The notes: generated from the sequence alone by a model not told the origin. Positions 12,470-15,730 are shown, numbered from the stretch's first letter. The stretch is 36,613 nucleotides of DNA from Candidatus Bathyarchaeota archaeon (GCA_013329615.1 DUKA01000095.1:1-36613); one strand, 5' to 3'. Program-made: numbers and translations.

Positions 12470-12730
12470 CTAGGCTTCCCAGCCGTAGTTGCTGAACTCG
12501 ACAGTGTTTATGATCTTTACCTTGAAGTCCTCGTCGCTGCACTTCTGGCTGTACATTACGAAGCCGTCGAAGGCGAAGAGGTGATTCTTTCCACGCCTGT
12601 AGATGATGCGGGGCTTCGCTATCTCGACGAGTTGGAGGAACTCTTCCCGGTTGAACTTTAGGCGGTAGCCGCTCGCGTTGCTATCCGCCGAAGCTGCAGC
12701 CGCCACAGTCGCTGCTTCCATTTCAGTCAC
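12470..12730 (-). CDS. Small hypothetical protein (83-86 aa)
   Basis: GTG 12730 or ATG 12721 could be the start. TATA-like CTATATAG lies at about 12787-12797 (minus sense). No family recognised. Confidence 0.5.
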   Translation of the reverse strand: MTEMEAATVAAAASADSNASGYRLKFNREEFLQLVEIAKPRIIYRRGKNHLFAFDGFVMYSQKCSDEDFKVKIINTVEFSNYGWEA

Positions 12731-12797
12731 CTGAATAGTGTTCGGTGTCCTTGGGCTATAGCTTTTGGTGATGTAGAAAAAATAGGCTATATAGAGG

Positions 12798-13418
12798 CTA
12801 AGTTAGGAGGCTCGTCAGGAACTGGACGAGCAGCTGCGCCCTTCCCGTGATGTATGTTATCCTCGTCATTGCCACCTGTCCGAACATGGCTCCGAAGAAG
12901 AGCATCATGAAGTACCGCCCCGTGGTCTTCACCCGTGCCCCGCCGGCACCTCCTTCGACGGTGAAGAGGAAGTAGGTGAGGGTCGAGACTACGCCTGCGA
13001 GCACAAGGACGGCGTTGAGGGTCGCCATCGGGTCTCCCCAGATGATCACCGGCTGCATCGACGCCTTGATCTGGTCGTAGATGTAAGTGTGGGCGGCACC
13101 GCGTATGGCTAGCCCGACGCCGACCCCACTCATCACCGCCACGGGCCACTGGCTCAGCTTGCCCAGCCTCTTCGAGTAAACCGTGAAGAGGAGGAGCCCG
13201 AGGGCTACGGGTATCGCGAGGGTCAGGTTACCGCCGAGCAGGGGGTTCATCCCGCTCGACTGGAGGCTCCGCACCGCCATAACGACGACGTTTCCGAGGG
13301 AGATGCCGACAAAGAGCGCCTCAGCCATCCTGTAGGCGGGGTTCTCCCGGTAGAGGACGTAGCTCAGCACGGCGACGGTGAGGCCGATCGCGACCCATGA
13401 TTCGAGGGCGGGTATCAC
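12798..13418 (-). CDS. Polytopic membrane protein (206 aa), 4th gene of the four-gene membrane operon
   Basis: Several hydrophobic segments of about 20 aa. The GTG start overlaps the upstream stop as GTGA. Confidence 0.75.
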   Translation of the reverse strand: MIPALESWVAIGLTVAVLSYVLYRENPAYRMAEALFVGISLGNVVVMAVRSLQSSGMNPLLGGNLTLAIPVALGLLLFTVYSKRLGKLSQWPVAVMSGVGVGLAIRGAAHTYIYDQIKASMQPVIIWGDPMATLNAVLVLAGVVSTLTYFLFTVEGGAGGARVKTTGRYFMMLFFGAMFGQVAMTRITYITGRAQLLVQFLTSLLT

Positions 13419-14242
13419 TGCTTCCGCCTCCTGAGCCTCTCGCCGACGAAGGCGACGTTGCCGAGGACGATGAAGGCTATCACCACGAGCTGCCCCATAC
13501 TCAGGGCATCTATACCCTGGTTAGCGAGCCCAGGGGCGCCGATTAGCTGCTCATACTCTGCGCAGCCACGGGGCCCGTTGAGTATCGCCTCGACTGAGCC
13601 GGCTTGGTAGAGTGGGTAGAAGTAGCTGAAGTTGACGGCGGTGGGGACACTGAGGACGGGTGTGCCGTACTTTGCCTGCCACTGGCGTGCATAGAAGCCA
13701 GTGGCGGTCCCCGCATCGAATGTCACGACGAGCCTATAGGCGGAGTAGTCGTCTGCCGCTTGGAGCAGTGGGAGCGACGCGGCGTCGTTTCCGGCGTAGT
13801 CCCTGCTGTAGACCTCCCGCATGTTCTCGGCTATGCTGGCGATCATCGTCTCGTCCCCCGCGGCGTAGCCCAGGTTGACGTAGTCGACGCCGTAGCCGTA
13901 CCCCGCCGATGTGAGCACCGGTCTGAAGTACTGGTCGAAGACGAGCGACCCCTCGGCGACCGTGGAGACGGCGACCACCTTGACGCCCTGCGCACTGAGT
14001 TGCTTGGCGAGTGCTATGATTCCACCGCCAAGCTCGGAGACGCTGCCCAGCCCTATGTCCATGGAAACTAGGACAACGTCCCCGGGCGCGAGTGCGTCGA
14101 TTGTGGTCTTGAATTCGGTGCTGTATGTGCTGATCTGCATGGGTAGGCCTAGCGGGACGGCGTATGGGAGGGCGATGAGTAGTAACATTGCCCAGTACAT
14201 CACCCTGCGGTCCATCTTGGCGAGCCTTTCGAGGGCGCTCAT
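13415..14242 (-). CDS. Bitopic membrane protein: N-terminal TM, ~200-aa non-membrane domain, C-terminal TM (275 aa), 3rd gene
   Basis: The N-terminal TM is VMYWAMLLLIALPYAV and the C-terminal TM is LVVIAFIVLGNVAFV, followed by RLRRRKQ. ATGA overlap with the upstream gene. By eye it shares blocks with the 1st gene (PGDVVLVSMDIGLGSVSE vs GRGVIFSTGSGSGGLNSD). Confidence 0.75.
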   Translation of the reverse strand: MSALERLAKMDRRVMYWAMLLLIALPYAVPLGLPMQISTYSTEFKTTIDALAPGDVVLVSMDIGLGSVSELGGGIIALAKQLSAQGVKVVAVSTVAEGSLVFDQYFRPVLTSAGYGYGVDYVNLGYAAGDETMIASIAENMREVYSRDYAGNDAASLPLLQAADDYSAYRLVVTFDAGTATGFYARQWQAKYGTPVLSVPTAVNFSYFYPLYQAGSVEAILNGPRGCAEYEQLIGAPGLANQGIDALSMGQLVVIAFIVLGNVAFVGERLRRRKQ

Positions 14243-14859
14243 TTGGCTACCCTCCCGCGTTCGAAGCCGAGTATCTGCCTTACGCCCGCTATGATGGCGC
14301 CGACGGCGAAGGCTATGGTGAAGCCGCGGTTGCCACCGAGGCTGACTATGTCGTTCAGCCAGTTGCCGAGGGGCAGGACGCCGGGGAGGAGGTACTCGCC
14401 GACGGGCATGTTCTTCAGCATGATCATCGCGGCCGCCGCGAGGACTATCCCCGCCTCAAGGCTGCGCGCCCGGAAGGTGCGGAACGCCGCGGAGACTATG
14501 AAGAAGCCTATGAAGCTCCCCACCGACATGCTAAGGGGCGTTAGTATGTTGCTGGTCAGCCAACTATACTGGGACGAGGAGGGACTCAACGCGAGACCGA
14601 TGGCTATCGTGCCAAGCGCCGAGGCAACGGCGACGCCGCTGTAGACTGAGCGCTTCTTCACGATCTGCCTGCCATTGTATGCGACGTAGCTGAATAGGCC
14701 TAGTAGCGTAGCGAAGCCCGCAATGATTATCCCCCATAGCTGGAGGCTGCCGCTCGCCGAGGCGAGTGAGGCGTTGTCCGTGAAGTAGCTCGCGATTACG
14801 AGCGTGCAGGCTGCGACGCCGATGGCTATCGGTATCTCCCTGCGGTTGATGAGTGACAT
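14239..14859 (-). CDS. Polytopic membrane protein (206 aa), 2nd gene
   Basis: Multiple hydrophobic segments. The ATG lies 1 nt after the upstream TAG. Confidence 0.75.
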   Translation of the reverse strand: MSLINRREIPIAIGVAACTLVIASYFTDNASLASASGSLQLWGIIIAGFATLLGLFSYVAYNGRQIVKKRSVYSGVAVASALGTIAIGLALSPSSSQYSWLTSNILTPLSMSVGSFIGFFIVSAAFRTFRARSLEAGIVLAAAAMIMLKNMPVGEYLLPGVLPLGNWLNDIVSLGGNRGFTIAFAVGAIIAGVRQILGFERGRVAK

Positions 14860-14860
14860 G

Positions 14861-15643
14861 CTACACGCCTCCTGCGATGAGCAGCTGGCTCAGCCATGCA
14901 ACGCTGATCGTGGACAGTATAGCGCCACCCACGACGAGGGTTATTACGAGTACCTTCGTTGCCTCGGCGGCGAAGACGCTGCCGAGCAGTGCCTTGTCCC
15001 CCGAGAGGTAGGCGCCTGTGACGAACATCTCCTCCCCGATGAGGACGTAGTCGCAGCTGGCGATCTGGAAGGGGAGGTTGACGCTGTCGGGCTGACCAGC
15101 TATCTGGAAGGCGCCGACGGCGTTACCCGTCTCGCTTAGTAGCAGTGCCTCGCTCCAGAATATGCCGAGCCAGAGGGCGGCGGCGGGGCGCTCCTCCTCC
15201 ATCCTGCCCATGCAGGCGCTAGCGTAGCCCCACCCCTTGCCGTAGTACTGGACGGCGGCGTCGCTGTACGCCTCGGGCTCACCCGCGACCGTGTAGGCGT
15301 CGCGCATGGTGTCCTGTGCCAGAGGCATCAACTCGGGGTACGCCGAGACGAAGGTAAGAGGCGTCTGCGCCGTCGCGGCTAGGTTCGCAACGTAACCGAG
15401 CGTGTTCAGCCCCGCCAAGTGGTAGGGCGCAGAGTCGCTGTTCAGGCCGCCCGAGCCGGAGCCCGTGCTGAATATGACGCCGCGCCCCATCTCGGCGCTG
15501 CGTCCCACGGCCTCCTTGATGACCTCGAGGCCGGGGATGCGGCGCAGCTCGCGGTACCGCCCCTTGCTCCCCGCGTACAGGGAGACGAGTGTGGCGGCGA
15601 GTATGAAGATTAGCAGGGCGAGGACGCCGATCCTCTGGATCAT
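14861..15643 (-). CDS. Bitopic membrane protein: N-terminal TM, ~200-aa non-membrane domain, C-terminal TM, 1st gene
   Basis: The track starts at GTG 15688 (275 aa). ATG 15643 (MIQRIGVLALLIFILAATLV..., 260 aa) begins directly at the TM helix and is preferred. The C-terminal TM is VLVITLVVGGAILSTISVAWL. Confidence 0.7.
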   Translation of the reverse strand: MIQRIGVLALLIFILAATLVSLYAGSKGRYRELRRIPGLEVIKEAVGRSAEMGRGVIFSTGSGSGGLNSDSAPYHLAGLNTLGYVANLAATAQTPLTFVSAYPELMPLAQDTMRDAYTVAGEPEAYSDAAVQYYGKGWGYASACMGRMEEERPAAALWLGIFWSEALLLSETGNAVGAFQIAGQPDSVNLPFQIASCDYVLIGEEMFVTGAYLSGDKALLGSVFAAEATKVLVITLVVGGAILSTISVAWLSQLLIAGGV

Positions 15644-15730
15644 GGCGCCGCGCCTCCGGTGCACCCGGCAACCAAGCGGCGAACCCACTGTGACTGGGGC
15701 TCGTTAGAATAACCGCTGGGTGAACGAGAG

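Follow-up and report, generated by a model that had tools for sequence, protein, structure and literature searches.

Four adjacent genes on the minus strand, here called g1 to g4, were analysed in a stretch of 36,613 nucleotides (nt) from a Candidatus Bathyarchaeota archaeon. This stretch, referred to as the window, is contig C61 of a 1.8-Mb archaeal genome that is 84% complete. The four genes constitute one operon, with one promoter region, coupled starts led by GGAGG motifs and an oligo-T end. We lean towards the view that its product is a four-subunit integral-membrane complex, widespread but uncharacterised, of which this is one paralogous copy, and that the complex works in the way proposed below.

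A "DUF6754 cassette" was defined operationally as a co-directional and tightly spaced g1-g2-g3-g4 set in which each gene matches its own family profile; the window locus shows this order, this spacing and all four profile matches. The cassette is present four times in this genome (contigs C61, C54, C78 and C103), at 28–39% identity and with the order unchanged. The same order was found in nearly all of the 78 loci fetched, which were taken from one-genome-per-species contigs and belong to Bathyarchaeia, Nitrososphaerota, Methanomethylicota, Armatimonadota, Bacillota, Planctomycetota, Cloacimonadota and Victivallales. The earlier note on this DNA had staked its claim of a four-gene module on the occurrence of the genes together in other genomes, and they do occur together, in a fixed order, at about 70 loci in archaea and bacteria. 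Moreover, the distance matrices of the four genes correlate pairwise with r = 0.92–0.95 over 68 complete cassettes, indicating that the four-gene set duplicates and diverges as a unit. The view of that note that the genes are translationally coupled and encode a hetero-oligomeric membrane complex is likewise supported. Genomes carry between 1 and 15 cassettes, and some Bathyarchaeia have 10–15 of them in less than 2 Mb. The window copy is a stand-alone paralogue whose synteny with peptidase and dehydrogenase genes is conserved. Putative g1+g2 fusions, represented by open frames of 468–498 amino acids (aa), were rejected, as inspection of those loci revealed separate genes; the over-long open reading frames (ORFs) in cassette loci are mostly upstream extensions, not fusions.

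At the family level, g1 is a full-length match to Pfam DUF6754 (PF20539), scoring 219 bits against a cut-off of 27 (E 7.9e-65), with residues 17–269 aligned to positions 8–256 of the 257-position profile. A whole-genome DUF6754 search also recovered g1, at C61:14882–15640, and the protein is a true member of this family. The earlier statement that none of the four belongs to a recognisable family therefore fails for g1, whose Pfam family is of uncharacterised function, but stands for g2, g3 and g4, which have no match in Pfam, NCBIfam, PADLOC or the Protein Data Bank (PDB). When the Pfam scans were run on 139 aligned family members, no family was found across 53 members for g3 or in any of 47 for g2, and no consistent one across 39 for g4. 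NCBIfam gave no match for any of the four proteins, and PDB sequences gave no meaningful match for any of the four family profiles. As none of the four proteins matched a PADLOC defence-protein model at E ≤ 0.1, a defence system was rejected. Nor did the profile searches of all four families match any subunit to a characterised transporter or assembly family, an outcome that would have refuted the claim of the earlier note.

The homologues of g2 form at least 277 clusters and those of g4 at least 1313 clusters at the 90% level, nearly all of them unnamed or annotated as "hypothetical". Family models are lacking for three of the four subunits and solved relatives for all of them, despite the size of the g3 family, which counts 5506 representatives at 50% identity (E ≤ 1e-3). 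Literature searches on DUF6754 and on GlmL, the family of the ATPase discussed below, returned nothing relevant, and no paper on the family was found.

Fold, membrane topology and origin of the subunits

AlphaFold2 models of g1 and g3 were built from the family alignments of this analysis. Both are of high confidence, with a predicted local distance difference test (pLDDT) of 92.7 and a predicted template-modelling score (pTM) of 0.87 for g1, and values of 96.2 and 0.90 for g3. The two models are alike: each starts with a transmembrane (TM) helix and a further helix, continues with a doubly wound Rossmann-like sheet of six beta-alpha units and ends in a long TM helix at the C-terminus, with the secondary-structure elements at near-equal positions. 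The architecture that had been read from the sequence by the earlier note, an N-terminal TM segment, a domain of about 200 aa and a C-terminal TM segment, is thus borne out by the models, which add that the domain is alpha/beta. Hydropathy profiles agree with its description of g2 and g4 as polytopic, with about six hydrophobic segments each. In total, the complex would comprise about 16 TM helices and two Rossmann-like domains. Foldseek comparison of the g1 and g3 models with the PDB returned generic Rossmann proteins only (TM-score ≤ 0.38), among them shikimate dehydrogenase and medium-chain dehydrogenase/reductase (MDR)-type reductases, and both models matched the same ones. The fold class of g1 and g3 is clear, with no specific PDB relative and no function that can be transferred.

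Two unusual g3 relatives were observed. In one, of 630 aa (P0307), the g3 alpha/beta domain occurs twice in tandem, flanked by the two TM helices. The other, of 472 aa (P0384), continues past g3 with a lipobox-like hydrophobic segment (…VAVAGCGGG…) and an extension of about 180 aa, and could be either a natural lipoprotein fusion or a gene-calling artefact.

Membrane topology was predicted from lysine plus arginine (K+R) counts with the positive-inside rule. Averaged over the family, g1 has K+R values of 0.7 in the N-tail, 4.3 after TM1 and 0.9 in the C-tail, predicting a cytoplasmic domain and termini outside. The values for g3 (3.2, 1.4 and 3.3, respectively) predict the opposite, a domain outside and termini inside. 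In g2, the odd loops score 2.0/3.9/2.9/2.0 against 1.0/0.45/1.85 for the other loops, and in g4, K+R per residue is about 0.21–0.25 in loops A, C and E and 0.04–0.10 in the N-tail, loops B and D and the C-tail. These patterns predict an N-in/C-in orientation for g2 and N-out for g4, the latter being less clear-cut. With g1 in and g3 out, and g2 N-in and g4 N-out, the g1+g2 half would mirror the g3+g4 half. In the 472-aa g3 relative, the lipobox-like signal segment lies straight past the C-terminal TM helix, which fits a cytoplasmic C-terminus. Some bacterial g2 and g4 homologues carry insertions of 50–140 aa (loci L038, L039 and L070 of Armatimonadota and L087 of Planctomycetales). Those of L087 lie in loops predicted to be outside, g2 loop C and g4 loop B, and the g2 insertion of L038, L039 and L070 lies around profile position 35–40, in the predicted TM1/TM2 loop.

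The earlier note had proposed an ancient duplication of a two-gene module, in which g1 pairs with g3 and g2 with g4. BLASTP found nothing for either pair. Profile-profile comparison of g1 and g3 gave a match (E 5.6e-4, Prob 30%) that spans beta1-alphaA-beta2-alphaB, precisely the stretch in which the note had recognised shared blocks by eye. With deeper g3 alignments, Prob increased from 30% to 48% and 60% (E 8.4e-5). The g1/g3 score of 36.0 exceeded all 150 column shuffles (mean 14.7, maximum 28.2), all 150 shuffles of twelve-column blocks (mean 19.4, maximum 31.6) and the reversed profile (22.0). In addition, strands and helices predicted independently line up in the alignment, and the remaining cross-family pairs have E values of 0.07–0.4, 200 to 1000 times worse. 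Distant homology between g1 and g3 is thus likely. For g2 and g4, profile comparison detected no similarity (E 0.067–0.2), and the correlation of their hydropathy (r = 0.52) lies inside the circular-shift null (mean 0.40, maximum 0.66); size, TM count and predicted mirrored topology are what would speak for a common origin of this pair. The proposed duplication was thereby supported for g1/g3, by the profile match and the shared order of secondary structure, and not for g2/g4.

An alternative, which concerns origin and not function, is that there was no duplication: the four genes would be of unrelated origin, the likeness of g1 and g3 a generic beta-alpha-beta resemblance and the 2+6 / 2+6 pattern of TM helices a coincidence or convergence. 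It would account for the modest hhalign probability, which never exceeds 60% and extends over about 85 columns, for the null results on g2/g4 and for the fact that both models hit the same generic Rossmann proteins. Generic resemblance sits poorly with a score that tops 300 of 300 shuffles as well as the reversed profile, with a signal that strengthens with alignment depth and keeps the register of strands and helices, and with the far weaker scores of every other cross-family pair. The mirror topology of both pairs is, furthermore, what an inverted duplication predicts. We consider unrelated origins somewhat unlikely.

A linked GlmL-like ATPase and the proposed function

Three protein clusters recur among the flanking ORFs of the 78 loci, in archaea and bacteria: a protein of about 611 aa of the MutL/GlmL family, which belongs to the acetate and sugar kinase/Hsp70/actin (ASKHA) superfamily (PF13941, E 4e-120), a protein of about 385 aa with a barrel-sandwich hybrid domain, and a small protein of 114–140 aa. 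None of the three is encoded in the window. In this genome, an ATPase/barrel-sandwich pair is found at C54:8535–11589, beside another cassette copy. The whole group (C54:8070–11589) encodes a 140-aa protein, a 623-aa GlmL/MutL-family ASKHA ATPase and a 393-aa barrel-sandwich protein and lies upstream of the cassette at C54:15129–18129, with a flavin reductase and a divergent 828-aa M14 peptidase between the ATPase genes and the cassette. A second, divergent pair of ATPase and partner is located at C81:4544–7160, away from any cassette. A biotin-dependent decarboxylase was rejected, because the barrel-sandwich domain of the ATPase partner is without an AMKM-type biotinylation motif in the sequence inspected.

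Co-occurrence was then counted in 121 genomes of the class with at least 80% completeness, which are related and do not count as independent samples. DUF6754 was present in 40 of them and PF13941 in 42. Long-form GlmL (open frames of about 570–675 aa) was detected in 39 of the 40 DUF6754-positive genomes and in 0 of the 81 negative ones; the sole positive genome without it has only a contig-end fragment of g1. Canonical short GlmL (466–476 aa; PF13941 E 1e-153 to 1e-158) was found in 3 DUF6754-negative genomes (G098, G126 and G137), which cleanly sets this classical mutase-accessory form apart from the long cassette-associated one. Both features are present in eight family-level lineages, and most other family-level lineages searched have neither. 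These data show that, in this class, the occurrence of the cassette is tied to the GlmL-like ATPase module. The numbers per genome differ: there are 1–5 PF13941/GlmL matches against 1–15 cassettes, and cassettes outnumber ATPases in many genomes (15 to 3, 10 to 2 and, in this genome, 4 to 2).

Conservation is uneven within the cassette. The mean column identity is highest for g1 (46%) and lowest for g3 and g4 (36% and 35%, respectively), compatible with a cytoplasmic interface that stays constant and an outer face that varies. In g1, 15 positions are invariant; many are acidic or polar (including R34, R48, E51, E165, E171, Q180, D198 and Y199), and by our reading of the model boundaries the invariant positions would lie at strand ends and helix starts. 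Catabolic genes are found next to the cassettes: those of an M20 peptidase, a zinc-dependent alcohol dehydrogenase (Zn-ADH) and an aminotransferase at the window, and those of M14 carboxypeptidases, amidohydrolases and aldehyde:ferredoxin oxidoreductases beside other copies.

We propose that the complex acts as a translocation unit for a specific substrate, with uptake of peptide- or amino-acid-derived nutrients as the most likely role. The outward domain of g3 and g4 would take in the substrate, g2 and g4 would form the membrane path, and the better-conserved cytoplasmic domain of g1 would couple the unit to the shared GlmL-like ATPase module (on C54 and C81 here). One energising module would then serve many substrate-specific components, as in group II energy-coupling factor (ECF) transporters. 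The uptake reading was chosen because paralogous cassettes are many, the apparently shared ATPases few and the neighbours catabolic. That the cassette is a substrate-specific uptake unit energised in trans is, by its likeness to shared-module ECF systems, a serious possibility, if not quite a probable one.

Several points weigh against this proposal. No ATPase gene lies near the cassette of the window, and the link to the ATPase goes no further than co-occurrence and frequent adjacency. Little weight attaches to the neighbouring genes, since many loci come from close relatives with common synteny. The conserved acidic and polar residues of g1 would equally fit an enzyme, and no substrate-binding or transporter signature was found in the four proteins. 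K+R counts are the single source of the predicted topology; sidedness found no independent support in the cysteine content, N-X-S/T sequons or net charge of the g1 and g3 domains, and the C-tail of g4 is fairly basic for a segment placed outside.

A more far-reaching form of the proposal can be formulated, which we regard as rather unlikely. If the cassette arose by inverted duplication of a two-gene module, a bitopic Rossmann-domain subunit plus a 6-TM partner, the complex would be pseudo-symmetric about an axis in the membrane plane. It would then represent a new transporter class with an alpha/beta domain on each face, one acting as outer receptor and one as inner gate, and a GlmL-family ATPase of the actin fold would supply the energy in trans to as many as about 15 substrate-specific cassettes per cell. 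To our knowledge, no described transporter has an ASKHA ATPase or has whole subunits mirrored together with their soluble domains.

Two other functions were considered against nutrient uptake. The first is an export or assembly machine that moves an envelope component (a lipid-linked glycan or a lipoprotein, surface-layer or pilus-like cargo) outward, the g1 domain receiving cargo or energy inside and the g3 domain passing the cargo on outside. A domain on each membrane face and the lipoprotein-like gene or segment attached to g3 in some relatives are in line with such a machine, and the alpha/beta auxiliary subunits known from ABC-2 exporters of the GldG type are likewise bitopic, each end carrying a TM helix. 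It is nevertheless improbable, given that up to 15 paralogous cassettes in a 1.8-Mb genome would be unusual for an envelope machine, that the recurrent neighbours of the cassettes are catabolic enzymes and include no glycosyltransferase, secretin, pilin or surface-layer genes, and that the hosts include archaea and both single- and double-membrane bacteria, whose envelopes are unrelated. The second, a membrane-bound enzyme or ion-translocating complex that conserves or spends energy and carries no nutrient, with a catalytic or cofactor-binding g1 domain and ion-conducting g2/g4, is quite improbable: the invariant g1 positions are placed, by our reading of the model, as in the active sites of Rossmann-like enzymes, and ion-pumping decarboxylases and Rnf-type complexes are common in anaerobic fermenters such as the hosts, but no Rnf/Nqr, decarboxylase, iron-sulphur or haem motifs or Pfam hits were found, the membrane subunits have no conserved cysteine or histidine clusters, Foldseek pointed to no specific enzyme family, and so many paralogues would not be expected of a housekeeping ion pump.

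Much of the degradation of buried organic matter is due to Bathyarchaeia, Armatimonadota, Cloacimonadota and their neighbours. If the cassette does take up peptides or other substrates, a large share of nutrient uptake is absent from current metabolic reconstructions, and if the mirror-image arrangement is true, a membrane complex with one soluble domain per half, coupled to an ATPase of the actin fold, would have no precedent in its design. Direct tests are within reach, thanks to the high-confidence models and the large number of homologues in bacteria. What the present analysis contributes is the confident models of g1 and g3, the statistical test of their homology, the predicted mirror-image topology and the status of the window copy as a stand-alone paralogue.

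Operon anatomy and flanking genes

The features of the operon are listed in the table below. The junctions described in the earlier note, TAG-c-ATG between g1 and g2, an ATGA overlap between g2 and g3 and a GTGA overlap between g3 and g4, were read again from the sequence. The alternating sizes of 275-206-275-206 aa were confirmed for the ORFs only; with the start at ATG 15643 they become 260-206-275-206. This start is the most likely one because a GGAGG motif lies upstream of it, because DUF6754 family members start just ahead of the first TM helix and because an independent gene call on the orthologous contig gives an ortholog of 259 aa. It follows that the equal sizes of 275/275 arise artificially, from extension of the ORF. 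The 206/206 equality of g2 and g4 looks coincidental, since aligned relatives vary in length, within the windows of 200–235 aa (g2) and 195–240 aa (g4) by which they were chosen for alignment.

Features of the four-gene operon, positions counted from the first nucleotide of the window
Feature	Position	Strand	Description
g1 ORF	14861-15688	minus	275 aa as open frame (GTG 15688)
g1 likely gene	14861-15643	minus	260-aa bitopic subunit, ATG 15643; Pfam DUF6754
g2	14239-14859	minus	206-aa polytopic subunit, about six TM helices, predicted N-in/C-in
g3	13415-14242	minus	275-aa bitopic subunit, alpha/beta domain predicted extracytoplasmic
g4	12798-13418	minus	206-aa polytopic subunit, about six TM helices, predicted N-out/C-out, less certain than g2
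GGAGG of g1	15653-15657	minus	Shine-Dalgarno-like, 9 nt ahead of ATG 15643
GGAGG of g2	14868-14872	minus	8 nt ahead of start
GGAGG of g3	14251-14255	minus	8 nt ahead of start
GGAGG of g4	13427-13431	minus	8 nt ahead of start
T6 run	12777-12782	minus	16-21 nt past the g4 stop codon
TTATTCTAA	15704-15712	minus	TATA-like element, in the 165-nt gap upstream of g1

The pattern GGAGG-N8-RTG has 8 matches on both strands of the window, and three of these eight are the starts of g2, g3 and g4. Oligo-T tracts end archaeal transcription, and the T6 run is likely such a stop at the end of the operon. At the other end, TTATTCTAA is a possible promoter element; if it is real, the transcript would begin downstream of GTG 15688, which favours ATG 15643. 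Comparison with an orthologous locus of about 80% identity indicated purifying selection on all four genes, the ratio of nonsynonymous to synonymous substitution rates (dN/dS) being 0.12–0.20. This locus keeps the synteny of M20 peptidase, alcohol dehydrogenase, cassette, small ORF and uL13.

The window cassette is flanked by the genes of the Zn-ADH and the M20 peptidase, a small ORF and ribosomal protein genes. The small ORF (86 aa, 12470–12730, minus strand) lies between the cassette and the uL13 gene and has no Pfam hit; a 76-aa gene is called at the equivalent position of the orthologous contig (L096:11535–11765), and no recurrent small ORF stood out at this position in the other mapped cassette loci. 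Elsewhere, an M14 carboxypeptidase-like protein of 828–851 aa with no obvious signal peptide adjoins cassettes of at least two paralogue subfamilies (cluster c13, in 8 loci, for instance C54:12243–14729), and at L097:3528–6083 its gene is co-directional with g1 and lies 60 nt upstream of it. Four Bathyarchaeia loci (L016, L042, L066 and L054) have 2–3 aldehyde:ferredoxin oxidoreductase genes directly upstream of one cassette subfamily and an amidohydrolase gene downstream.

Comparison with known systems

Pfam DUF6754, of which g1 is a full-length member, is a sequence model of uncharacterised function and covers one of the four subunits. As a system, the cassette most resembles the group II ECF transporters, in which a shared EcfAA'T module serves many S components: here too, many membrane units stand against few ATPase modules, which are mostly encoded elsewhere. 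There is no sequence relation, and an ECF transporter was rejected because no S or T component matched above threshold (PF12822, E 0.78, 10 bits against a cut-off of 30.7). Furthermore, the candidate ATPase of the cassette is an actin/ASKHA-fold relative of GlmL and not an ATP-binding cassette (ABC) ATPase, the unit would have four subunits in place of a single S protein, and the coupling is, in our case, a proposal.

Subunits of the GldG / ABC_transp_aux type in ABC-2 systems are also bitopic, with a TM-flanked alpha/beta domain and a permease-like partner of about 6 TM helices. The cassette proteins differ in that they have no PF09822 or ABC-2 permease Pfam hit and in that a cytoplasmic orientation is predicted for one of their two bitopic subunits. 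No ABC ATPase was found among the genes scanned or the recurrent cassette neighbours. An ABC transporter, including the ABC-2/GldFG type, was rejected, as neither g1–g4 nor the 139 family members gave an ABC-related Pfam or NCBIfam hit. Rnf/Nqr complexes were rejected as well, with no Pfam hit to PF02508-type, FMN-binding or Fe-S subunits in g2, g4 or 86 aligned relatives and no PDB sequence relatives.

In known inverted-topology pairs (EmrE-type YdgE/YdgF, Fluc/CrcB pairs, RnfA/RnfE and NqrD/NqrE), adjacent partners of the same size and TM count have opposite K+R bias. According to work attributed to Rapp, von Heijne and colleagues, such a bias reportedly results from duplication of a dual-topology ancestor. 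Opposite K+R bias was found here for both g1/g3 and g2/g4. Unlike in those pairs, the inverted unit would be a two-gene module that includes a soluble domain of about 200 aa, with one of the two domains exported, and homology is moderately supported for g1/g3 and undetectable for g2/g4.

Finally, the cassette-linked ATPase resembles GlmL/MutL, the accessory protein of glutamate/methylaspartate mutase, and Or-4, in that it matches PF13941 and the NCBIfam models of GlmL and Or-4. It falls far below the equivalog cut-offs of these models (223 against 475 bits and 215 against 600 bits), is about 150 aa longer and is encoded, in the loci examined, beside the barrel-sandwich protein and the membrane cassette.

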